A stretch of DNA of 64,000 nucleotides from an uncultured bacterium (GCA_966674685.1 CBKWJC010000009.1:25490-89489); one strand, 5' to 3'. Counted from the first letter of the stretch, positions 3,346-28,669 are shown. Numbers and translations are program-made. Notes: a model not told the origin generated them from the sequence alone.

Positions 3346-3590
3346 CTATTCGTATGCAGCTCCTTATCTTCAGTTAGCAGTTAGCTACAACGTGAAACCG
3401 ATCAAGTGGTTCACAGACTGTTTGGTCGGTTTTCGCCTACGAGTCGTTTTCTGAGCAGTGTGTATCAAATGAACGTGACATGACTATCAAACTCATGTTT
3501 TTCTGAATAGGCTGCTCTGATTTGTAGATACACAATCCCTGTCCACCCAATTCTTAATGAGCCTTTGCAGGGCTTTAGCCTGACACAACT

Positions 3591-4616
3591 ATGTTTGGTT
3601 TAATCGGTCATCTGACGAGCTTAGAACACGCCCAATCTGTTGCTAGAGATTTAGGATATCCAGAATATGCCGATCAAGGTCTTGATTTTTGGTGTAGCGC
3701 GCCGCCACAAATCGTCGATGACTTTTCGGTAACCAGCGTAACAGGGCAAACCATTGAAGGGCGCTATGTCGAATCCTGTTTCTTGCCAGAGATGCTTGCG
3801 ACTCGTCGTATCAAGGCCGCAACCCGCAAGATTATCAACGCCATGGCTCATGCCCAAAAAAATGGTATCGACATTACGGCTTTGGGTGGATTTTCATCGA
3901 TTATTTTTGAGAACTTCAATCTCCAGCGGATTCAGCAAGTTCGCAACGTCAAGCTTGACTTTCGCCGCTTTACGACGGGTAATACCCATACGGCCTACGT
4001 GATTTGTCGTCAGGTTGAGCAGGCCGCAGAGCAAGTTGGCATCAAGCTATCCGAGGCAACGGTGGCCGTTTGTGGTGCAACGGGTGACATTGGTAGCGCC
4101 GTCTGCCGCTGGCTGAATGCGCGGACGGATATTGCTGATCTGCTACTAGTCGCGCGTAACCAAGAGCGTCTACAGCTACTCCAGGATGAGCTAGGGCGCG
4201 GCAAAATTCTGCCGATGGAAGACGCTCTCCCCCAGGCGGACATTATCGTTTGGGTGGCGAGTATGCCAAAAGGCGTTGAGATTGACCCATCGACGCTAAA
4301 GCAGCCCTGTTTGATTATTGACGGTGGCTATCCCAAGAATATGGGTAGCAAATTTGATCACCCTCACATTCACGTTCTCAATGGCGGCATTGTTGAGCAT
4401 TCGCTGGATATTGACTGGCGAATTATGAACATTGTCAATATGGATGTGCCTGCCCGTCAGATGTTTGCTTGCTTTGCCGAATCGATGCTGCTGGAGTTTG
4501 AGAAGTGGCATACGAATTTCTCTTGGGGCCGCAATCAGATTTCATTGGAAAAGATGGATATGATTGGTCAGGTTTCGGTTAAGCATGGTTTCCGGCCATT
4601 GCTGCTGGGGCACTGA
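3591..4616 (+). CDS. aar: long-chain acyl-ACP reductase
   Basis: 341 aa. The N-terminus [15 protein letters not shown] and the motifs [10 protein letters not shown] and [11 protein letters not shown] are typical of cyanobacterial AAR. It is adjacent to ado. Confidence 0.95.
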
Positions 4617-4813
4617 TGGCTTGAGGTGTTTAACCTTTCGGCCTCGTTGGGAGTGTTGGGGGAAGGGTTAATGGTTGGTGTGCGATCGCACCTTTCCTGA
4701 TATTCCTCTCCTGACGTTTTTGCTCATCTGCTGACACTTTTTGATAGGTTAATAACTAGGTTTCTATACCTAATTGCTCTTGTTCACTCTCGTTGTGATA
4801 CACAATCCGCTAC

Positions 4814-5800
4814 ATGGCTACTTCGACTCGCCGACCCATCCTCTTAGATTTTGAAAAACCGCTATCCGAACTGGAAGCGCGGATTAATCAGATCCGTGAC
4901 CTGGCCGAAGAGAATGATGTTGATGTCACCGATCAAATTCGGCAGCTAGAGGCTCGGGCTGAGCAACTGCGAGAGGAAATCTTCAGCGGGTTGTCGCCAG
5001 CCCAGCGATTGCAGGTTGCCCGCCATCCCCGGCGACCCAGCACGCTGGATTACATTCAGGCGATTACCGACGAGTGGATTGAGCTGCATGGCGATCGCAG
5101 TACGGGCAAGGATGACTCGGCCATTGTCACGGGCATCGGTCGGCTGAATGGTCGTCCTGTAGTGCTGCTGGGCCACCAAAAAGGCCGGGACACCAAAGAT
5201 AACGTAGCGCGTAACTTCGGTATGGCTTCTCCCAGCGGCTATCGCAAGGCCATGCGGCTGATGAATCACGCCGATCGGTTTGGTATGCCAATCATTGCCT
5301 TTATTGATACGCCGGGTGCATTTCCTGGCCCAGAAGCTGAGCGGCTGGGCCAGGGTGAGGCCATTGCTTACAACCTACGCGAAATGTTCCGGCTGAATGT
5401 GCCGATTGTCTGCACGGTGATTGGTGAAGGCGGTTCCGGTGGTGCGCTAGGCATCGGAATTTGCGATCGCTTATTGATGTTTGAGCATTCGGTCTACACC
5501 GTTGCCAGTCCAGAAGCCTGTGCTGCCATTCTCTGGAAAGACGCAGCCAAGGCACCTCGGGCGGCTGAAGCACTGAAAATCACGGCCAAAGATTTGAAGG
5601 AACTTGGTATTTTAGATCAGCTTTTACCAGAACCGATTGGTGGGGCGCACGCCGATCCAGTAAAAGCAACTGAAACTCTCAAAACCGCTTTAATTGAAAA
5701 TATCAATGAGCTGAGCCAGTTGACGAACGAAGAGCGAAAAAACCTGCGCTATCAAAAATTTCGACAGATTGGCCGATTCACAACGGAACCCATTGCCTGA
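4814..5800 (+). CDS. accA: acetyl-CoA carboxylase carboxyltransferase subunit alpha
   Basis: 328 aa with [23 protein letters not shown] and [12 protein letters not shown] motifs. Confidence 0.95.
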
Positions 5801-5818
5801 ATATTTTAATCATGCAGC

Positions 5819-5875
5819 AAAAGAGTGATGAGAGGCAAAGTAAGCTGAGCTTGCTTCGCCTCTCATCACTCTTTT
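5819..5875 (+). terminator. stem-loop downstream of accA
   Basis: Perfect 18-bp inverted repeat AAAAGAGTGATGAGAGGC / GCCTCTCATCACTCTTTT, 19 nt after the accA stop. The right arm ends in TTTT. Confidence 0.7.
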
Positions 5876-6261
5876 GGCTGAATTTCTAGAGTCATCGCCA
5901 TGCCAGATAATTGTCAACAAAATTTTAAGCAATTTCTAAGGCTCATGACTGAATTCAATGTAAGCTGAGACGTGTGGTAATCCCCTAAAAATTTGAGTCG
6001 GAAAACCGAATTTGGCCAAACCTGCCTAAAGGGAAAATCAAGTGTTAAAATGAGAGGCGAAACATAACTTAATACTCGCCAATTGATCAACAGCAACAGC
6101 TTTGAGGCTGATTCATTTGAGTTAGCACATTCAACTTGATGAATCAAATATAGAGTTTTCTCAATTTGCCAAACTGCTATCCTGCTGTTACCAACTGATA
6201 ATGAGGCATTTTAGCTTTTAATTCTTGCTTCTTGAGCATGTCGGAGTCGCGGCATCAACTA

Positions 6262-6345
6262 GTTAAGTAAGTTGACACAAGTAAAACGGATCTAAAAACC
6301 GGGGGACGCCCCGGAAGTGTTTTCCCGGTTTTTAAATGATCCAGC
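6262..6345. repeat. dispersed hairpin element, copy 2
   Basis: AAGTAAGTTGACACAAG...AAAAACCGGGGGA...TTCCCGGTTTTTAAA aligns with 3262-3345. Confidence 0.55.
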
Positions 6346-6616
6346 TATTTGTCTAGAGCTATTTAATTAGGTATTACGGCGCTGTCGGTGCTGACACAAT
6401 CAATTCAGCGGATTGAATTTGCCAATTTTCTTGATTGCTGATATCTCTTAATCTACCAATAAACCACATAGTATGTCAGCCACGGATGGCAACATCAGCT
6501 AGTAGTATTGCCCCACTTTAAAGCGGGCTAAACCATCAATTAGTCTCAATGGTTCTGATAAGACATTAATTCAGTTTGAGCCAAGTAGTGATCACAGCCG
6601 CACATTCAGTAATTTC

Positions 6617-7342
6617 ATGACTTTATCTAAGACACAGCGTGTCCTTATCACTGGAGCCAGTAGCGGAATTGGCAAAGCAACTGCGATCGCATTTGCGAAA
6701 GCCGGATTCGATTTGGTGCTGGTCAGTCGATCCGCCGATAAGCTGGAAGCTGTCGCTCAGGATATCCAGGCGGCAGGAAGAACCGCTCAGGTCTACCCAT
6801 TGGATTTAGCCAACCTTGAGCAAGTCAAGCCTCGCATGATGGCAATTGCCGAGAAAAGCGGCGGCATCGACATCTTGGTCAACAATGCTGGTATGGGCTA
6901 CACCAACACGATTGACGATACGTCACTAGCGGATTGGCAGCAGGTACTGGATCTCAATTTGACCAGCGTTTTCCAGTGTATTCAGGCCATTCTGCCAGGG
7001 ATGCGTGCCCAACAGCACGGCCTGATTATCAACGTTGCTTCGATTGCGGCGAGTAGTGCATTTCCAGGTTGGGGAGCCTACAGCGTCAGTAAAGCAGGGC
7101 TGGTGACCTTATCGAAAATTGTGGCCGCCGAAGAGCGGAGTAACGGGATTCGGGTCGTCACGATCTCTCCTGGTGCTGTCAACACCCCGATTTGGGACAC
7201 CAATACGGTGCAGGCCGACTTTGATCGGTCGGGTATGTTAACACCGGAAATCGTAGCCCACAGCATTCTTCATGCAGCGTTGCTGCCCGAGCAGGCTGTC
7301 ATTGAGGATTTAACCGTGATGCCGAGTGCTGGTGCGCTCTAA
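6617..7342 (+). CDS. SDR-family short-chain dehydrogenase/reductase
   Basis: 241 aa with the TGASSGIGKA cofactor motif, NNAG, and the YSVSK catalytic Tyr-x3-Lys. Confidence 0.85.
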   Translation: MTLSKTQRVLITGASSGIGKATAIAFAKAGFDLVLVSRSADKLEAVAQDIQAAGRTAQVYPLDLANLEQVKPRMMAIAEKSGGIDILVNNAGMGYTNTIDDTSLADWQQVLDLNLTSVFQCIQAILPGMRAQQHGLIINVASIAASSAFPGWGAYSVSKAGLVTLSKIVAAEERSNGIRVVTISPGAVNTPIWDTNTVQADFDRSGMLTPEIVAHSILHAALLPEQAVIEDLTVMPSAGAL

Positions 7343-8449: not shown

Positions 8450-9139
8450 CTAGCCGTTCTCTCTATTGGTTTTCCCGAGTACCATACCTAATGCATGGGC
8501 GGCGGCTTGCTTCTCGGCGTCCTGCTTGCGCTTGCCCGTGCCCGTACCGAAGGGTTGACCCTTGACGCTGACGACGGCTGTAAATGTTTTATCATGGTCG
8601 GGGCCGGATTGATGGGCAATGGTATAAACCGGATTTTCGCCAAATTGAGCCAGTGCCCAGGCTTGGAAGCGGCTTTTAACGTTATCGAATGTCGGGGTCG
8701 TGTCAAGCTGCTCGACCGCAGACTGAAAGAGCGGCTGCATGTAGGCTTTAACGGCCTCAATATTGGACTGGGTATCTAGCAAATACGCACCAATCATCGC
8801 TTCGAAAGCGCTGCTCAGCAGATTTGAATTGGTTCGTCCTCCGGTTTGCTCGGTGCCTTTGCCCAGACGCAGGTGACGACCCAAATCGAGCGCGATCGCA
8901 AATTTGGTGAGCTGAATTTCATCAACCAAGGCTGCCCGCATGGAGGTCAGTGTTCCTTCTGGATAGCCCGGATAGCGCTGGTAGAGGAATTCTCCGGCGA
9001 TGTAGGTCAGCACCGCATCACCTAAAAACTCCAACCGCTCATTGTGATCACCATCGTCTGGGTACTCGTTCACATAAGAACGATGAGTCATCGCCTGTTG
9101 GAACAGTTCAACAGATTCAAATGGGGGCAGTTGTAGCAT
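8450..9139 (-). CDS. rnc: ribonuclease III
   Basis: 229 aa with the RNase III signature NERLEFLGDAVL and a C-terminal dsRBD-like region. Confidence 0.9.
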   Translation of the reverse strand: MLQLPPFESVELFQQAMTHRSYVNEYPDDGDHNERLEFLGDAVLTYIAGEFLYQRYPGYPEGTLTSMRAALVDEIQLTKFAIALDLGRHLRLGKGTEQTGGRTNSNLLSSAFEAMIGAYLLDTQSNIEAVKAYMQPLFQSAVEQLDTTPTFDNVKSRFQAWALAQFGENPVYTIAHQSGPDHDKTFTAVVSVKGQPFGTGTGKRKQDAEKQAAAHALGMVLGKTNRENG

Positions 9140-9198
9140 GGTTCAGCAACAGGTTAAGGACAGGGGCCGTTTCTTAAACGTGCTGGCTCTTGGCTGGG

Positions 9199-9933
9199 CT
9201 ACATGAATTTAGTCAGCGAAACGATACCAAAAATCATAAATAAGCTACCGCCAAGGGCAGTAACGGTACGTTCTGAGATCCTACCTGCAATTAGACGCCC
9301 ACACAAAACTGCAATTACCGCGCAAATCGTGTGGCCCAAAATCGCACCGATTGTTACACCCAAGGGATGATAAGCCGTTGCCAGCATGACCGTGGCAATC
9401 TGGGTGCGATCGCCCCATTCAGCAACAAACGTCAGCGAAAATGCCTTGGCAATGATCTGCATCGCTTGCTTAGGAACGGTCTTGGACTCGGCGGCTTCAA
9501 CAGTTTGAATGGCGGCTTCTTGCTCATCAATTGGTGGCTGATCAGACATTTTACTCGCATCGTAGAGTAATTTCAGCCCAAATCCTAAAAAGAGTGCAAC
9601 TTCTGCCACCCGCACCCATGTCGTTGGCAACTGGGCAACGGCTTGTCCCAGGGCAACGGAAAGCAGCGTCATCGCTGCTAAGGCCAGCACTACACCCAGC
9701 AGCACCCAGCGCCGCTGGTGGCGCATCGCTAAAATAGCCGCGATAAAAAATGTCTTATCGCCCAGTTCGGAAATCGTAATTAAGGTTAATCCTGCTGTAA
9801 ATGCCGCTAACATCGCCTCAAGCTCCTCTGGATCGGTGGATGAAGTGACCACGCTTGATCGTGAGCTTGAAGGAGGGCTGAGAGAATTTGGCGAACTCCA
9901 CCAAGCCCACATCGATACGTGATTTGTGGTCAC
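9199..9933 (-). CDS. UPF0016 (GDT1/TMEM165/Mnx-like) putative Mn2+/Ca2+ transporter
   Basis: Two copies of the family motif E-x-G-D-(K/R)-(T/S) are present (ELGDKTF and EWGDRTQ), in a polytopic membrane protein. The ORF starts at a GTG. An internal ATG at 9813, preceded by GAGG, may be the true start. Confidence 0.85.
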   Translation of the reverse strand: MTTNHVSMWAWWSSPNSLSPPSSSRSSVVTSSTDPEELEAMLAAFTAGLTLITISELGDKTFFIAAILAMRHQRRWVLLGVVLALAAMTLLSVALGQAVAQLPTTWVRVAEVALFLGFGLKLLYDASKMSDQPPIDEQEAAIQTVEAAESKTVPKQAMQIIAKAFSLTFVAEWGDRTQIATVMLATAYHPLGVTIGAILGHTICAVIAVLCGRLIAGRISERTVTALGGSLFMIFGIVSLTKFM

Positions 9934-9951
9934 GATTCAAGTGAACTTAGT

Positions 9952-10079
9952 GAAGGTCTCGCTTTCAAATGAACTGCGGTTCAGATCAAGCTGAACACCG
10001 TTCATTTGCCACCTAAGCCAGGTTCATCACCAGTATGTTGACCTAGGTGTACTGGCTATGCCAGCAGCTACTCCCCTTC
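9952..10079 (-). promoter_or_regulatory. probable yybP-ykoY (Mn2+) riboswitch aptamer in the leader of the UPF0016 gene
   Basis: The minus-strand RNA reads GAAGGGGAGUAGC...AGCGAGACCUUC. It has the conserved L1 GGGGAGUAG and the 3' AGCNAGACC, with a P1 pairing of GAAGG/CCUUC. Between them lie the hairpin CUGGC-AUA-GCCAG, the stem CACCUAGG/CUUAGGUG, and the hairpin AAAUGAAC...GUUCAUUU. The order matches that of the L. lactis aptamer. Confidence 0.62.
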
Positions 10080-10168
10080 TACATGAAAAAATATACCAGG
10101 TTGTTGACGGTTTAGTGCGATCGCAATTCCAAATATCGGCAATTCATGAAAAATCGTGAATAAACATC

Positions 10169-10242
10169 GGTAGGGGCGTTAGCGTAGCCATGCCCGCAGG
10201 GCTATATGGCCATTCGCCCCTACCCCAGCCATTCGCCCCTAG
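10169..10242. repeat. mini-palindromic element GGTAGGGGCGTTAGCGTAGCCATGCCCGCAGGGCTATATGGCCATTCGCCCCTACC (intact copy)
   Basis: The termini GGTAGGGGCG / CGCCCCTACC are inverted. A short duplication of GCCATTCGCCCCT follows. An interrupted copy lies at 16249-16388. Confidence 0.7.
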
Positions 10243-10270
10243 CAAAATTTTGAAAATAACCAATTAGGAA

Positions 10271-18954: not shown

Positions 18955-18986
18955 TCAGGTTCATGATGCCAATTGAATAAATTACA

Positions 18987-19019
18987 GAAGTGCGATCGCA
19001 GTTTTTAAAGTGCGATCGC
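18987..19019. repeat. paired extended-HIP1 motif (GAAGTGCGATCGCAG-N6-AAAGTGCGATCGC)
   Basis: The same 15-mer and 13-mer recur at 22384-22418. Confidence 0.6.
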
Positions 19020-19039
19020 GTTCTTTTTTGTCAAGCTAA

Positions 19040-19375
19040 TTAGCTGAGATAGCGAGTCAGGATGCTGATGTGGTCGTCAGGTTGGCGCTGGGAGAGAATG
19101 CGCGCGACATCTCCAGCACTGGGGCAGGGGATGGGCTGGCTCCACTCATTCGCTTCGGCAAAACCACGACGGTGCAGGTTTTTAATCGTGACAATGATGT
19201 CGGGGCGAGAGCCGAGCAGGATAATCCGCAGGGGATGACGACCCTCGCGTTGGGGATGGCTGGGATTGGCCGCAGCAGCTTGTGGCGCTGCATGGGGTGC
19301 AGCACCGAGAATGAAGTATGTCATTGGGTTTTCCTGTGTTTTTGACTTTCTGAGAAAAGCCAAAAATCCAGCCAC
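19040..19375 (-). CDS. small hypothetical protein
   Basis: 111-aa ORF with host-like GC. An alternative start is the Met at 19324 (MTYFILG). Confidence 0.45.
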   Translation of the reverse strand: MAGFLAFLRKSKTQENPMTYFILGAAPHAAPQAAAANPSHPQREGRHPLRIILLGSRPDIIVTIKNLHRRGFAEANEWSQPIPCPSAGDVARILSQRQPDDHISILTRYLS

Positions 19376-19898
19376 CCCGCGTTCGTGCAGCGCAATACAG
19401 GGTGGCTTGGGAGAAGCTATAATCCTCCAAGCCTCCGCGTTGCTGGTTCAACGTGGCAGGTTAGCTATCCAGGGTTGTGTCCGCAACTCTGGGTAGCGTT
19501 GGCTAGATTTTTGGTGCCAGTCGCCGCACGCTTGTTCACGGCTACGACAGCTTAACGTTTCACAGTACGGGATTTAGTCGGTGGAGTCAATATTAGTTTA
19601 TTGGCAAAAACGAGCCTCATACCATTTATAAGTGACTCAACACTTTACACAGTGCTAAAAGTTACCTGGATTGAGCTATTTAGAGAAAAATTTCGTTTTT
19701 TAAAGTTTTGACGCACTACAGTCATCTTTTTACCAACATAAAACGAATATTGTTATTAGTTTAATAATGAAGCACTTACTATATGTAATAAGAATCACTG
19801 AGTATAATTCTTCAAATCACACTAAAGAACTAAATTGCCTCCAATACATAAAAAGATATTTTCAGATATAAGCCAAGCATGGAATTCTAAAAGGCTAC

Positions 19899-20954
19899 AT
19901 GAGTCAAGCCAAAAAGATTTTGATATTGTCAGCTAATCCTCGTAGCACATCGCGCCTACGTTTAGACCAAGAAGTGCGAGAAATCAGTTTAGGTTTACAG
20001 AGAACACAAAAAAGAGAGCTTTTTGAAATACATCAAAGATGGGCTGTAAGACCAAGAGAATTAAGACAATCTTTACTAGATATTGAACCACATATTCTTC
20101 ATTTTTGCGGTCATGGCTCTGAAACTGGAAGCTTGTGTTTTGAAGGTAATAATGGTGAAGAGAAATTGGTTCATCCAGAGGCTATAGCTCATTTGTTTGA
20201 GTTATGCCCTTATGTTGAATGCGTGGTTCTTAATGCTTGTTATTCAGAAATACAAGCAATATCTATTAATCAATATATTCGTTATGTCATCGGGATGAAC
20301 CAGGCAATAGGAGATCAAGCAGCAATCGAATTTGCAATTGGATTTTATGATGCTTTGAGTGTGGAACGCAGCTTTGAAGATGCTTATAAATTTGGATGCA
20401 ATGCAATTGAGCTAGAAGGTATTCCTGAGTATTTTACGCCTGTACTAAATATTAAAGGCCAAAATAGATCTTCTCAGTTGCCTTCACAATGGGATAACGA
20501 AGCTTATGTCTCACTCCATTTAGTTCAAGGAGTATTAGAAGAAGCAAGGTTATTTCGCAAGAATCTTTACTGTCATTGGTATCCTCAATTCAAAATAAAA
20601 GCAAAAAGCAACACTAAGAATGGCATCTTAAAAGATGTCTCTAGACCAGTAGACTTTTTAATAGAAGACTTTCAGCGAGATATAAAATTTTTGATCGAGG
20701 TTAAGTCAGCAAAAAGTAAAATTGATGATTCGGCTCGATTTCAACTTAAGACGTATCTTCAGCATTCAAGGTTACGTCATGGAATCGTTATAGATCCATT
20801 TAAGATGGAAATATATGAACTTAATAATGGAAAATTTGACTTTAGGGAAGCTTATGACATAGAAAACCCAGAAAACTTACAACCCATTGCTGCATTTCTT
20901 ACAAAATACTTGGATTCTATCTCAAATGCGTACGATTGCAATTCACACGTCTAA
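19899..20954 (+). CDS. CHAT/caspase-like domain fused to a PD-(D/E)xK (HsdR-N-like) nuclease domain
   Basis: The N-terminal ~185 aa match the widespread cyanobacterial CHAT-type module, with HFCGHG (His72) and VVLNACYS (Cys114). The C-terminal half carries PVDFLIED (Asp252), FLIEVK (Glu267, Lys269) and FQLKTY. Confidence 0.7.
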   Translation: MSQAKKILILSANPRSTSRLRLDQEVREISLGLQRTQKRELFEIHQRWAVRPRELRQSLLDIEPHILHFCGHGSETGSLCFEGNNGEEKLVHPEAIAHLFELCPYVECVVLNACYSEIQAISINQYIRYVIGMNQAIGDQAAIEFAIGFYDALSVERSFEDAYKFGCNAIELEGIPEYFTPVLNIKGQNRSSQLPSQWDNEAYVSLHLVQGVLEEARLFRKNLYCHWYPQFKIKAKSNTKNGILKDVSRPVDFLIEDFQRDIKFLIEVKSAKSKIDDSARFQLKTYLQHSRLRHGIVIDPFKMEIYELNNGKFDFREAYDIENPENLQPIAAFLTKYLDSISNAYDCNSHV

Positions 20955-21855
20955 GGGTGGAGTGGGAAAAACCACTTTGACCGTAAATATGGCTTATGAA
21001 TTAGCTATAACAGGAAAGAAAATACTGGTTATCGACTTAGATGATCAAGCTAATAGCAGTTTGTACTTGGGTGTAAACAAAGCTGATGAGTTCAATAAAG
21101 CTAAAAGCATAGATGAGTTCAACAAGATCTTAGACTCCTTTAAAAGCAGAAAAGAAGTCATAGATTTCTTGCGAGAAGATATTGATTCACCTGACTTTGA
21201 TTATAAAGAATTTATTCATGAAAGCTCGACATTCAACGAATACATCAAGCAAAATGGTGACTCTGGTGGACGAATAGATGTACTGCCAAGTAGCTATAGA
21301 ACAAAAGAAGATGAAATGCTAACTCAGATGGTTGGAGGAGGAGGAATTAAACAAACTCGTTTACACCGAGCATTAAATATGACTGATATTTCCAGCTTTT
21401 ATGATTATGTAATAATTGATACTCCCCCGAACTTGACAATGGTCGGTAATAACGGCTTATATGCCTCACGCTATGTGATTGTACCAACTCAGCTAGAGTA
21501 TTTCTCTGTGTTTGGTGTTAGATCAGTAATTCGCAGCATTCAAAGAACAGTGCAAGTTGACACTGATGGTCAACGAGGCAAGGTGTTGGGAGTAGTGCCA
21601 ATGATGACCGAATCTAATAACAAAATCAATAAGTTTGCGGGTCAGCTATTACAACAAGTTTTGCCTCCTGAAGTTGAGATCTTTTCAGGAATAAAACGAA
21701 CTACTTACTTTGCTGCTGCTGTCAAAGATCGTCTTCCTATTTCAGTTCTTGCACAGAAGAAACCTAGAGCTGCTGGTCAAGCAGCCATACAAGTATCAAA
21801 AGTTGCTGATGAACTGGTTGAAAAAATTAATCAAGAAGAAAATAAAGGAAATTAA
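20926..21855 (+). CDS. ParA/MinD-family ATPase with a ~60-aa insertion
   Basis: It has the deviant Walker A KGGVGKTT, A' IDLDDQAN and Walker B VIIDTPP. The ORF opens at 20887, and the ATG at 20926 gives the usual spacing to the Walker A. It overlaps the upstream gene by 29 nt. Confidence 0.85.
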   Translation: MRTIAIHTSKGGVGKTTLTVNMAYELAITGKKILVIDLDDQANSSLYLGVNKADEFNKAKSIDEFNKILDSFKSRKEVIDFLREDIDSPDFDYKEFIHESSTFNEYIKQNGDSGGRIDVLPSSYRTKEDEMLTQMVGGGGIKQTRLHRALNMTDISSFYDYVIIDTPPNLTMVGNNGLYASRYVIVPTQLEYFSVFGVRSVIRSIQRTVQVDTDGQRGKVLGVVPMMTESNNKINKFAGQLLQQVLPPEVEIFSGIKRTTYFAAAVKDRLPISVLAQKKPRAAGQAAIQVSKVADELVEKINQEENKGN

Positions 21856-21857
21856 GT

Positions 21858-22382
21858 ATGTCTGTAAAAGTTCAAAGTGGATATGGCCTTTTATACTTAA
21901 GTCAAATTTTAGAGCCGAATGGATTATCAGATATTCCTCAAAAAACAACAGATAAAATCATCAAGAGTTTAAATGATTGGGGATTCAATCTATCTCTTCC
22001 TATTGTCTGTTTGACACAAGAAGAAGAAAGATATCGCCTGTTGACAGGATTGCCAATTTACAAGGCAGCTAAAGAGGCAGGGTTGAAGCAAATTTGGGTG
22101 CTTTTAATTGCTCAAGAAGCTTCTACAGCAGAAGAGGTAATCGAGCAGGTTCAACTTCAATCAAAGCTAAATGAGAAACTGATTGAACCTGAAGATTTGG
22201 ATGAGTTTTTGGAATTTCTTAATGCTAAGGAATCAGACCTTACTTCAATACCTGGTATTAAGGAAGGCTATGCAAAATTAATTCAAGAAAAACGCCCTTT
22301 CGACTCTATAGATGAAATGAAGCAAAAGCTGGGGCCAAAGCGATCAATGAACTGGTTTAAGGCATATCAAAAGAAAAAATAA
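21858..22382 (+). CDS. ParB/Srx-like N-terminal domain protein with a C-terminal helix-hairpin-helix
   Basis: PIVCLTQEEERYRLLTGLPIYKAAKEAGLKQIWVLLI aligns with the ParB box region, but GERRxR is replaced by TGLPIYK. DLTSIPGIKEGYAKLIQEKRPFDSIDEM is a ComEA-type HhH. The gene starts 2 nt after the ParA-like stop. Confidence 0.65.
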   Translation: MSVKVQSGYGLLYLSQILEPNGLSDIPQKTTDKIIKSLNDWGFNLSLPIVCLTQEEERYRLLTGLPIYKAAKEAGLKQIWVLLIAQEASTAEEVIEQVQLQSKLNEKLIEPEDLDEFLEFLNAKESDLTSIPGIKEGYAKLIQEKRPFDSIDEMKQKLGPKRSMNWFKAYQKKK

Positions 22383-22386
22383 GGAA

Positions 22387-22418
22387 GTGCGATCGCAGAT
22401 GGGAAAAGTGCGATCGCA
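22387..22418. repeat. 32-nt double-HIP1 repeat, copy A
   Basis: GTGCGATCGCAGATGGGAAAAGTGCGATCGCA matches 23321-23352 with 2 mismatches. Confidence 0.8.
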
Positions 22419-22529
22419 TTTCGCTAAACCAAATGGCACTCAAAAACTGACTACACTAAGATCGAAGTTGTAGCTCTACAGCAACAGTATGGCAACAAAC
22501 CACCCCAGCCACTCTCGAAGCACTGCTGC

Positions 22530-22781
22530 TTGAAATTGAAGCAGACCCTTGCCTATATTCCGATTCAGACAGACACAATGCTGCTAGCGGCTGAACTGTG
22601 GGCAGAAGCAAGGCAAGCTGGACAACCCACGGCTGATGCTAAAGCACTAGATGGAGATGTGATTTTATCTGCTCAAGCTCGTCTACTTAGTGATGAGACA
22701 ACAGAGGTTGTTGTTGCCACAACTAATGTGTCGCATCTATCTCGCTTCATCACAGCACTAGATTGGCAATCTATTATGTAA
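22530..22781 (+). pseudogene. PIN-domain (VapC-like) toxin remnant, N-terminally truncated and probably frameshifted
   Basis: Only the C-terminal half of the PIN fold is present (LLAAELWAEARQAGQPTAD...DGDVILSAQA...VVATTNVSHLSRF). There is no N-terminal Asp motif and no ATG. An upstream alternative frame reads ...TLEALLLEIEADP. Confidence 0.5.
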
Positions 22782-26855: not shown

Positions 26856-27037
26856 AAAAACTACTAGCGCTGAAAGTTGTGATTATTCGGCATGTAGGAA
26901 TGCACTGCATTCTTACATGCCGTTTTGTTTTGAGGGTTGCGAAGGGTGCGATCGCACATCAAATCCTGCAAATCTTCTCTTCCCTTGACGTTAGCAGGAG
27001 AAATTGCATATGAAGGGAAAAGTTTCACCCAGGACTT

Positions 27038-27205
27038 ATGAAAATAGAAGTTGCTTTAATTAGCGGGCTGTGCTGCGCTATCGGTCAAAGCGTTTTACTC
27101 CACCTTTTCTTTTCAGCGTTTATGGCCACCTATGGAGCATGGGTATTGCTCGGCTTATCAATCTTTAATTGTGGTGCGGCAGGCTTAATTCTATTGCTTT
27201 ATTAG
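27038..27205 (+). CDS. possible 55-aa hydrophobic peptide (two predicted TM helices)
   Basis: ATG-initiated ORF below the track cutoff: MKIEVALISGLCCAIGQSVLLHLFFSAFMATYGAWVLLGLSIFNCGAAGLILLLY. No clear RBS. Confidence 0.25.
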   Translation: MKIEVALISGLCCAIGQSVLLHLFFSAFMATYGAWVLLGLSIFNCGAAGLILLLY

Positions 27206-27555
27206 GTTTTGGCTTTTCGATATGAGGATATTAAGAGGAATTAAATGGAAAGTTGCGATCGCAATCCAATATTCAAAAATAATCGTAGATTTACAATCAG
27301 ATAAATCGAATTTATTTTACTGAATGCTCAGCCTAATCACCCCAATTGATATGTTTAGGCTGGCAAATTAGGTGATCCGGCAGTTTCACTCTAATCAATT
27401 GTTGGACTAATTAGCTCCTTGACGAGTGCAGTAGCCATAAGCTACCGATTAATTTGCAAAATAATGAAATACATTGTGATGCTCTAGATGTGTAACAGTT
27501 ACAAAGGTGAGCAGCAACACCATAGACAGCAAGCGTGATCACTCTCTGATGAAAT

Positions 27556-28560
27556 ATGCTCAAACCATCTGAAATTTACAGACTTGTGAATGACTACATT
27601 GGTGTATCTGGAGGATATCTGAATAATTTTTCATATAGAACCCACTATGAGTTCTATCCTTACTATTGTGATTTAGAGATTGATGTAGCTGACTACGAAC
27701 CTGGCACTACACGGGCAAAGTTCATTCGAATACTCGAAGAATCAAATCCATTAGTCCAAGCTAAAATTCTAAGAGGAGTGTTCAAAAAAATTCCTGTTTC
27801 AGCTTTTGAGGAAAAGGATAGAGAGAAAAAACAGGAAATTCATGACGAATATCAGGCGATCATTGCTAGGCTTGAGTCTTTTTCACAAGGTGATAGTAGC
27901 GATTTCAAGAATTTGATCTTTGCTGCGAACGGACCAAAACCTGAAATTGTATTGGTTAATGCAACTACTAACGAAATCAAAATCGTAAAGAATGAAGAGT
28001 ACTGTCTCGTATACGATAGACCATTAACTGAAAAGGGGCTTTTATGGGAGGAATTAGTTGATTGGTGGTGTGATAGAGAGAATTTACAGAGTCAAAATCG
28101 TTCTGAACAGCGACGCGGACTGTTTAATAGATTACAAGCATCCATTGAAGATAACGAACCAGAAAAAATCTTATTTCGAACTTATTATAAAACCTTTTTC
28201 GAAGAGTTGGGAAATAGACTGCCAGCACTAATTCCACAAGTTTACTTACACTATGATCCCTATACCTGTAAGCATCTACAAGGTAAAAAGAGGTTGATTC
28301 GACAAAGAATGGATTTTTTGTTGTTACTTCCGTATGGTAAAAACGTTGTAATTGAGGTGGACGGCAAACAGCATTATTCTGAAAATGGACAATCTAGTCC
28401 TCGTTTATATGCAGAAATGGTTGCAGAGGATAGGCGTTTGAAACTTACGGGTTATGAAGTATACAGATTTGGTGGACATGAGTTCATAGAGACCGAGGAA
28501 CCACAGGAAGCAGTAAGAGAATTTTTCAGAGAATTTTTCAAATTTTTTTCTATTGTTTGA
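27556..28560 (+). CDS. unknown N-terminal region fused to a DUF559/Vsr-like PD-(D/E)xK endonuclease domain
   Basis: The C-terminus reads RMDFLLLLPYGKNVVIEVDGKQHY...EDRRLKLTGYEVYRFGGHEF, matching the D...E-x-D-G-x-x-H...R signature of DUF559. Sampled G+C is 21/60, and the gene contains no HIP1 site. Confidence 0.65.
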   Translation: MLKPSEIYRLVNDYIGVSGGYLNNFSYRTHYEFYPYYCDLEIDVADYEPGTTRAKFIRILEESNPLVQAKILRGVFKKIPVSAFEEKDREKKQEIHDEYQAIIARLESFSQGDSSDFKNLIFAANGPKPEIVLVNATTNEIKIVKNEEYCLVYDRPLTEKGLLWEELVDWWCDRENLQSQNRSEQRRGLFNRLQASIEDNEPEKILFRTYYKTFFEELGNRLPALIPQVYLHYDPYTCKHLQGKKRLIRQRMDFLLLLPYGKNVVIEVDGKQHYSENGQSSPRLYAEMVAEDRRLKLTGYEVYRFGGHEFIETEEPQEAVREFFREFFKFFSIV

Positions 28561-28669
28561 CGCCAACAGTCCGACACTTCACGGCAACGAATAGCCAAAA
28601 GTCGTTGGTGTGCTTTACTGTTATGCAGCATGAGCTAAATTTCTTTTATTTTGAGCTCTATGCAGACCA

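Follow-up and report, generated by a model that had tools for sequence, protein, structure and literature searches.

An AT-rich operon encoding a CHAT-nuclease protein, a ParA-type ATPase and a ParB-fold partner: a candidate conflict module of an undescribed family

The DNA considered here is a stretch of 64,000 nucleotides from an uncultured bacterium (GCA_966674685.1 CBKWJC010000009.1:25490-89489), referred to below as the window and numbered from its first base. At 19899-22382 this piece of cyanobacterial chromosome carries a cassette of three intact, coupled genes on the same strand, the third of which we call P3. The genes, as given by the listing of open reading frames (ORFs), and the two halves of gene 1 are laid out as follows:

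19899-20954, plus strand: gene 1, 351 aa
19899-20468, plus strand: N-terminal half of gene 1, a caspase-like CHAT domain (residues 1 to ~190; dyad H72/C114)
20484-20954, plus strand: C-terminal half of gene 1, a PD-(D/E)xK domain (residues ~196-340; D252, E267-x-K269, Q282)
20926-21855, plus strand: gene 2, 309 aa counted from the ATG at 20926
21858-22382, plus strand: gene 3 (P3), 174 aa

Genes 1 and 2 overlap by 29 nt and genes 2 and 3 are separated by a 2-nt gap, and the ORF coordinates thus agree with the coupling described in an earlier note that was drawn up from this sequence alone. That note also proposed a foreign origin, for which composition provides support. The cassette has a G+C content (GC) of 0.362 against 0.512 for the remainder of the window, and the GC profile falls from 0.52-0.56 in the flanks to 0.33-0.40 between ~19600 and 22400; the three 60-nt lines sampled by the note (21/60 and 21/60 G+C inside the islet, 33/60 in host sequence) proved exact on recount. 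The ratios of nonsynonymous to synonymous substitution (dN/dS) between the window and its relative in locus L001 are 0.087, 0.092 and 0.145 for genes 1, 2 and 3, and all three genes are under strong purifying selection.

Gene 1 joins a predicted protease to a predicted nuclease. Its N-terminal half scores 32.7 bits with the Pfam CHAT profile PF12770 (cutoff 24) and 1e-18 with the PADLOC 'chat' profile. In the AlphaFold2 model of the protein (predicted local distance difference test, pLDDT, 86.7), the best Foldseek match of the CHAT half is the SAVED-CHAT filament 8tl0 (E 1.7e-12, root-mean-square deviation 2.8 Å, 193 columns), with caspases and separase following, and the dyad is conserved among homologues (H72 in 118/120, C114 in 120/120). 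The C-terminal half gives weak HSDR_N_2 and PDDEXK_3 matches below the Pfam cutoffs; for PDDEXK_3 the window protein scores 17.7 against a cutoff of 22, and a relative, L006, lies just above it at 22.8. The fold of this half matches a putative restriction endonuclease (REase)-domain protein, 9y1l (E 2.6e-4), and its motif residues are retained across the family, D252 in 121/123 sequences and E267, K269 and Q282 each in 123/123.

Full-length homologues of gene 1 are few and 57-71% identical to it. Cyanobacterial mini-CHAT modules ~60% identical to the window's CHAT number in the thousands, fused to TIR, TRADD-N, EAD9, Mrr, HD-CE, GUN4 or AAA_35. A protein annotated as 'NACHT domain-containing' on a Nostoc flagelliforme CCNUN1 plasmid (NZ_CP024793.1, 566007-566768; match H13) is 47% identical to gene 1 residues 5-258. 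This match spans the CHAT and runs on into the beginning of the nuclease, a hint that STAND proteins reuse the CHAT-linker segment.

Gene 2, which lies in the +1 frame relative to gene 1, encodes a ParA/Soj-type ATPase with the deviant Walker A motif KGGVGKT (signature K10, K15; sequence MRTIAIHTSKGGVGKTT). It matches AAA_31 (E 5.5e-39) and CbiA (1.2e-16), and reaches 3e-21 with the NCBIfam profile ParA_partition, yet remains far below the cutoff of that model. The closest solved sequences are Soj/ParA proteins, which align in two stretches, and relative to solved Soj proteins gene 2 carries an insertion of ~50 aa. The ParA clade of the family, with identities of at least 44%, stands apart from plasmid ParAs, of which the best reaches 31%; genuine cyanobacterial plasmid ParA-ParB pairs are at ~28%.

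P3 combines a ParB/sulfiredoxin (Srx)-fold N-domain with a C-terminal ComEA-like helix-hairpin-helix (HhH) domain. In its AlphaFold2 model (pLDDT 89.6), the N-domain matches Noc, ParB, PadC, KorB and Srx with a Foldseek probability of 1.0 and E 1e-5; the C-terminus matches HHH_3 (1.2e-3) and the ComEA-related structure 2duy (2.3e-3), with no helix-turn-helix (HTH). When aligned by profile to Helicobacter pylori ParB, P3 places G-L-P-I-Y-E-A opposite GERRLRA, and the string 'LLTGLPIY' is conserved across the P3 family, as is a lysine close to the N-terminus, at residue 4. With G-L-P-I-Y-x-A in place of GERRxRA, the CTP site has very probably been lost. The description of genes 2 and 3 as a 'DNA-binding NTPase pair' in the earlier note was therefore an overstatement, as P3 is a ParB-like protein without the arginine box of ParB CTPases. 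The P3 family is small, comprising 20 full-length clusters at E<=1e-30 among 1.84 billion representative proteins, beyond which further matches are generic HhH repeats. No match was found by tblastn in 72,556 plasmids (PLSDB), 50,697 phages (INPHARED) or IMG/VR contigs, and no PADLOC model matched P3. In one protein of 495 aa, P0354, the P3 ParB-like N-domain is duplicated and preceded by an unrelated N-terminal region.

At the level of Pfam, CHAT lies above its cutoff and HSDR_N_2/PDDEXK_3, ParB_N and HHH_3 lie below theirs, backed by predicted folds and motifs. Profiles, folds and conserved motifs together uphold the domain calls of the earlier note, and conservation across the family confirms the catalytic residues that it had named (H72, C114, D252, E267, K269 and K15).

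Relatives of the cassette were sought with a P3 profile in 185,579 species genomes, which yielded 45 loci, and the four modules were compared by tblastn against 58 loci. The hosts recovered with the P3 profile are filamentous cyanobacteria, Thiomargarita, Parabeggiatoa and Thiotrichaceae. We assign a locus to the family if a P3 homologue stands behind a ParA of the clade and a homologous PD-(D/E)xK domain precedes that ParA or is joined to it; the window falls within this definition. The earlier note had proposed looking for the three genes as a conserved neighbourhood, and they are found together in at least three other genomic contexts: L001, L002/L003 and L004/L005 keep the gene order of the trio amid unrelated flanks, and in all long contigs examined that carry a full-length gene 1 homologue, ParA and then P3 stand behind it.

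The note's view of the trio as the basic unit requires revision. In ~30/45 loci the PD-(D/E)xK domain and ParA form one ORF of ~450 aa with P3 next to it, and alignment and tblastn identify the first 145 aa of these PDDEXK-ParA fusions as a homologue of gene 1's nuclease domain. The core unit is two genes, a nuclease-ParA fusion and a ParB-fold/HhH protein, and the window trio is a derived form in which the fusion was split and a CHAT added. The junction in the fusions reads ...FLDSIK-MRTIAIH; the window clade has one extra nucleotide before that ATG, so that gene 1 ends 29 nt into ParA in the other frame (...LDSIS-NAYDCNSHV, then stop), its nine-codon tail being the ParA start region in another reading frame. 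A programmed +1 frameshift giving a CHAT-PDDEXK-ParA product was considered and is unlikely, as stops in the ParA frame lie 2-11 codons upstream of the ATG in L001, L002 and L004; translational coupling of genes 1 and 2 is the simple reading.

Other members vary the same theme. In two Microcoleus loci (L045/L056) a Swt1-type HEPN domain (HEPN_Swt1 E 2.7e-34), with the Rx4H motif RNKWAH, is fused to ParA instead of the REase. In a contig of 6.2 kb from a metagenome-assembled genome (Leptolyngbyaceae cyanobacterium SL_5_14), ParA is fused in frame to P3 (P0232), a single case that could be an assembly error. The fusions imply that CHAT, nuclease, ParA and P3 are functionally linked. In L051/L052 (Scytonema hofmannii and a Nostoc), genes for nSTAND1 NTPases stand just upstream of ParA and P3 on the same strand.

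The features that surround the three genes are:

18989-19019, plus strand: left double-HIP1 repeat (AGTGCGATCGCAG-N7-AAAGTGCGATCGC), identified by pattern match, in repeat families D1/D2 and followed by a T-run
19040-19375, minus strand: ORF of 111 aa with normal GC (ORF listing), within the repeat-bounded segment and outside the AT-rich islet
19590-19898, plus strand: operon leader, 309 bp, non-coding, GC 0.33, no ORF
19785-19798, plus strand: CRP/FNR-type palindrome GTAATAAGAATCAC, followed by TATAAT at 19803-19808
22386-22417, plus strand: right double-HIP1 repeat, identified by pattern match, coinciding with inverted repeat I12 (14-nt arms, 93% complementary)

The leader palindrome has the form GT[GA]A-N6-TCAC and lies at a similar position in related loci, at -114 in the window, -118 in L001 (~7883) and -62 in L002 (~1050; ~-113 from the conserved Met). 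It is thereby present in 3/4 CHAT-clade loci, L004 being without it, and was found in none of the leaders of 19 family loci outside the CHAT clade; its background rate is 0.03 per kb per strand. These data suggest that palindrome and TATAAT comprise a putative CRP/FNR-family operator and promoter specific to the CHAT clade. A consensus promoter and terminator scan performed at shuffle level and did not pick up the leader promoter, and Rfam gave no match in the leader at E<=0.1.

The order of genes 2 and 3 recalls type Ib ParABS partition systems (Soj/ParA, Spo0J/ParB), in which a deviant-Walker-A ParA with a signature lysine is likewise paired, in a tightly coupled operon, with a small downstream partner bearing a ParB/Srx-fold N-domain. 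The two also differ. P3 has G-L-P-I-Y-x-A where ParB has the GERRxRA CTP box, and a ComEA-like HhH instead of the HTH or ribbon-helix-helix (RHH) centromere-binding domain; the family ParA has its ~50-aa insertion and, in most relatives, an N-terminal nuclease; and the sole conserved leader element is a single 14-nt palindrome, no parS array having been found. Searches for parS-like repeats and terminal inverted repeats gave nothing past short chance-level matches, and no repeat array near the operon. The earlier note had offered as its alternative a plasmid partition cassette in decay, with an unrelated gene as cargo, an account that extends to chromosomal partition cassettes and could draw on the bona fide ParA-family ATPase of gene 2, the ParB fold of gene 3 and the lack of a replication or integration gene nearby. 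It had also allowed that genes 2 and 3 might group with plasmid partition pairs; instead, plasmid ParAs are at most 31% identical and P3 is absent from the 72,556 plasmids. The supposed cargo nuclease is fused to ParA in most relatives, P3 has neither GERR box nor HTH, and the genes are intact with dN/dS of ~0.1. We reject the alternative on the fusion and selection data: because the trio recurs in order and is under purifying selection, a decayed partition cassette is extremely improbable.

Several lines of evidence make the origin of the cassette look foreign and mobile. HIP1 (GCGATCGC) occurs in 89 copies in the window against 1.7 expected, and, as the earlier note had observed of the islet, none lies between 19019 and 22389. 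This interval of 3377 bp is the longest HIP1 gap in the window; at a mean spacing of 719 bp, ~0.8 gaps of that length are expected among 89, so that the gap by itself is not significant. Significance comes from the family: 37.2 kb of system DNA from 19 cyanobacterial loci contains no HIP1 against 31.5 copies expected from the flanks (Poisson ~2e-14, a figure to be read with the relatedness of some of the 19 loci and the lower expectation in AT-rich DNA in mind). The pair of PDDEXK-ParA and P3 is also found in giant sulfur bacteria (L033-L035, L043, L044, L046, L048), at 43-49% identity to the window proteins, and its presence in these and in cyanobacteria implies transfer between them. A neighbour-joining tree of ParA, which carries no support values, is incongruent with taxonomy and mixes Nostocales with Oscillatoriales.

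Two imperfect repeats may mark the borders of the acquired segment in the window. A 'double HIP1' hairpin of 31-32 nt, AGTGCGATCGCAG-N7/8-AAAGTGCGATCGC, has just two copies in the window, where 0 are expected, and these bracket the AT-rich islet together with the GC-normal minus-strand ORF. The right copy begins 3 nt past the stop codon of gene 3, and is likely both the operon terminator and the right border of the segment; the left copy is a possible terminator and left border. The bracketed ORF at 19040-19375 matched no Pfam or PADLOC family, and tblastn gave only weak similarity, in L039 and L050. L058, an independent contig of 3499 bp from an ENA metagenome, is 100% identical to window 18965-22463, ending 24 nt left of the left repeat and 46 nt right of the right one. 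These ends fit a discrete, perhaps polymorphic segment of 3.4 kb, as only a hint, given low coverage. A search of JGI metagenomes for an empty-site allele, as an exact flank-to-flank pattern over one double-HIP1 unit, gave no match; the strain is probably absent from that collection, which makes the search uninformative. The earlier note had reported neither integrase, transposase, tRNA nor long direct repeat. The window indeed contains no tRNA, and no integrase or transposase was found among the neighbouring ORFs scanned against Pfam, whereas a direct repeat, albeit imperfect, does flank the cassette.

ParA, Soj and MinD proteins form ATP sandwich dimers via the signature lysine; ParA dimerises on ATP and then binds DNA, until a partner protein prompts it to hydrolyse the nucleotide and let go. 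Activity in type II REases, HEPN RNases and caspases depends on dimerisation or proximity. Against this background, we tentatively favor, with confidence a little short of even, the reading that the cassette is a horizontally acquired conflict module, of the abortive-infection/anti-foreign-DNA or addiction type, in which the effector is under a ParA ATP-dimerisation switch reset by P3. Typical of conflict systems is the modularity of effectors at one position, with HEPN in place of PD-(D/E)xK, nSTAND1 genes ahead of ParA and P3, and relatives of the CHAT fused to TIR, TRADD-N and other domains. The reading also draws on the conserved and selected unit, the fusions that link its domains, the intact catalytic sites, the distance from partition systems and the foreign, mobile look of the DNA; a defence role is what we infer.

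The proposed mechanism would run as follows. ParA would serve as an ATP-dependent dimerisation and DNA-binding switch, such that DNA-bound ParA-ATP dimers would juxtapose two effector domains and thereby activate them. The effector would be a PD-(D/E)xK DNase in most members and a HEPN RNase in some; in the window it would be the PD-(D/E)xK domain on a separate protein that also bears the CHAT caspase-like protease, presumably still docking on ParA. P3 would bind DNA via its HhH and stimulate ATP hydrolysis, as ParB partners do for other ParAs, returning ParA and effector to the inactive monomer and so acting as antidote. If P3 were lost, titrated or displaced, as might happen during infection, the effectors would be set free. 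Activation by ATP, the part of P3 as ATPase activator and antidote, the trigger and the immune phenotype are all steps that we infer.

An addiction module of the toxin-antitoxin (TA) type with no immune role would use the same parts differently, with the nuclease (plus CHAT) as toxin, ParA and/or P3 as neutralising partners, and death of the cell upon loss. The unit is small, autonomous and compositionally foreign, it stands in varied contexts in which TA genes are frequent neighbors (ParE, PIN, PhdYeFM, HEPN/MNT), and the operator-like palindrome of the CHAT clade is consistent with autoregulation. A precedent exists in the dyad of a HEPN gene (MAE_18760 family) and a ParA/Soj gene, predicted to be a TA pair (Anantharaman et al. 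2013, PMC3710099). Set side by side by description, the dyad and the present family share a nuclease toxin domain genetically coupled to a ParA/Soj ATPase as regulator. They differ in that the nuclease of the family is usually PD-(D/E)xK, with a Swt1-type HEPN in L045/L056 and no HEPN in the window; in that it is usually fused to ParA; and in that a ParB-fold/HhH protein is always present, joined by a CHAT in the window. Three large multidomain proteins are atypical of type II TA modules, and the effector swapping together with the links to STAND, EAD and TRADD-N point rather to the regulated conflict systems of multicellular bacteria. We regard a pure addiction module as unlikely, noting that its boundary with abortive-infection defence is partly semantic.

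Returning to the conflict reading, several observations weigh against it. The neighbors of the window cassette are housekeeping genes (GNAT, PEMT-like and glgP), and no member of the family is within a characterised defence system. Among 129 neighbor ORFs from 24 contexts, HTH_3 was counted 5 times, Uma2, DNA methylase and ParE 3 times each, and nSTAND1, NACHT and PIN twice each; this loose richness in TA, restriction-modification and STAND genes is suggestive at low counts, and as the counts have no background control, they are not used as strong evidence. ParA and P3 occur without a nuclease in Coleofasciculus (L036, L039, L042, L050) and Lyngbya (L049). As the window effector is not covalently tied to ParA, its control by ParA is an extrapolation, and since an HhH binds DNA without sequence specificity, it offers no account of how self would be told from non-self. 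Most strikingly placed are 28 loci in which psaA-psaB is immediately followed by nuclease-ParA and P3, on the same strand and at 150-1500 bp past psaB (L006-L016, L019, L021-L028, L037, L038, L040, L041, L045, L047, L054, L056; system at ~6.5-8.5 kb in most), in Microcoleus, Nostoc, Scytonema, Cylindrospermum, Mastigocoleus, Nodularia, Phormidium, Crinalium and other genera. A site so conserved suggests a hotspot or a stable function of the chromosome rather than the usual kind of defence island.

The psaA-psaB-[nuclease-ParA]-[P3] synteny is an argument for a different account, that of housekeeping DNA handling in large polyploid filamentous bacteria. Here the ParA/ParB-like pair would direct the nuclease to DNA, perhaps so that chromosome copies could be resolved, trimmed or turned over, and the window would hold a transferred variant. 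Members of the family come only from filamentous cyanobacteria and giant sulfur bacteria, groups that are highly polyploid, and the strong purifying selection on all parts is in keeping with such a function. Five features speak against it: distribution is patchy, the P3 search having given 45 loci from 185,579 species genomes; Nostocales and Oscillatoriales are intermingled in the ParA tree; the systems are AT-rich and HIP1-free even at the psaB site; a DNase is swapped for an RNase at the same position; and the window clade has gained a death-type protease. HEPN and REase versions alternate at psaB itself, and the tree, the composition and this alternation are compatible with systems having repeatedly replaced one another at a hotspot that a very conserved gene anchors. 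We consider a housekeeping function improbable, and slightly more so than the addiction module, yet a rival to be taken seriously.

The cassette was also compared with catalogued systems. As the earlier note had expected, the locus falls under none of the PADLOC system models; among single profiles, PADLOC returns the generic 'chat' for gene 1 and Walker-A-limited matches of the window ParA to PDC-M28B and mad8. For PDC-M28, a PADLOC candidate system, the 438-position PDC-M28B profile hits the HEPN-ParA protein of L045 over the HEPN part and Walker A (E 9e-12), which suggests a distantly similar arrangement of an N-terminal domain with a ParA-like one. The window ParA matches that profile over residues 3-39 only (E 9e-8) and the HEPN-ParA relative over 60-193, and as the match is partial, it does not amount to membership. 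We found no paper mentioning PDC-M28.

The SAVED-CHAT and Craspase proteases of type III CRISPR-Cas share with gene 1 the CHAT fold and His-Cys dyad, 8tl0 being the best structural match, and presumably also activation by assembly. They differ from it in context, as no SAVED, TPR, gRAMP or cas gene accompanies gene 1, and its CHAT is minimal (~190 aa), fused to a REase-fold domain and coupled to ParA and a ParB-like protein. The PADLOC SAVED_CHAT profile matches only the CHAT part of gene 1 (E 3e-4), and no cas-like ORF was seen either in the ORF listing of 17.5-24.5 kb or, at 26.5-31.5 kb, in the set of at least 90 aa.

In multicellular bacteria, caspase-like effectors have been described in association with EAD, TRADD-N, TIR and STAND modules (Kaur et al. 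2020, PMC7159879; 2021, PMC8195603). The window CHAT, ~60% identical to CHATs fused to TRADD-N, EAD9, TIR, Mrr and AAA_35, resembles these modules, as do the sister ParA and P3 loci that adjoin nSTAND1 genes. An active ParA with a ParB-fold partner as core is not described in those papers; the MinD/ParA-like domains they treat are inactive and serve as effectors of vWA-MoxR systems (Kaur et al. 2020, PMC7159879). In the literature we found no description of the nuclease-ParA and P3 family, the related reports being those inactive MinD/ParA effector domains and the HEPN-ParA dyad of 2013. We class the cassette, whose family is thus new to the literature we searched, broadly with NTPase-nuclease conflict modules.

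A more specific version of the conflict reading, which is possible yet doubtful, is that of an immune system derived from partition, in which DNA would be monitored by a ParA switch together with a ParB-fold partner that has lost CTPase activity, the two permitting activation of dimerisation-dependent effectors (REase, HEPN, or REase plus CHAT). Wadjet derives from condensin. The family would resemble Wadjet/JetABCD by analogy, as chromosome-maintenance machinery (here ParA/ParB) repurposed with a nuclease; there is no homology, and the analogy is functional only. If this version is true, partition-derived immunity would parallel the origin of Wadjet from condensin, and in the window variant the sensing of DNA would be linked to the cell-death network that multicellular cyanobacteria build from caspase, TIR and TRADD-N modules.

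If the cassette is a conflict system in the broader sense, it would be the first ParA/ParB pair turned controller of nucleases and a caspase-like protease. It would also add a mechanism, an ATP-dimerisation switch gating effectors that require dimerisation, and would offer a way to study immunity in filamentous cyanobacteria and giant sulfur bacteria, where it has been little tested. The natural forms (fused nuclease-ParA, split with CHAT, HEPN-swapped and nuclease-less) are ready constructs for dissecting the interplay of the parts. If the psaAB-linked majority are housekeeping genes, they would reveal a new ParA-based DNA-handling function in polyploid bacteria.

Minor observations concern the surroundings of the family loci and of the window. 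Beside the nuclease-less ParA and P3 of Lyngbya (L049), a 561-aa protein at 8584-10266 has a type I S-subunit-like half and a C-terminal RNHLAH motif, and beside those of Coleofasciculus (L036) a divergent NNH3-NACHT-pentapeptide protein is encoded at 3589-6729 on the minus strand; these neighbors may be effectors or sensors in trans. In L004, psaE lies 1.3 kb upstream, and in L052 phycobilisome linker genes lie downstream. The open frame that follows the right repeat in the window (22428-22778) resembles the C-terminal part of a PIN/VapC toxin at first sight, a likeness to a truncated gene that Pfam does not support, as it gives no match. Lastly, the window contains a second AT-rich islet at 27000-28600 (GC ~0.37) with a single orphan ORF of 334 aa at 27556-28560 on the plus strand. 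This ORF has no match in Pfam, PADLOC or PDB sequences, and its C-terminal stretch ...VVIEVDGKQHY..., judged by eye alone, may be REase-like.

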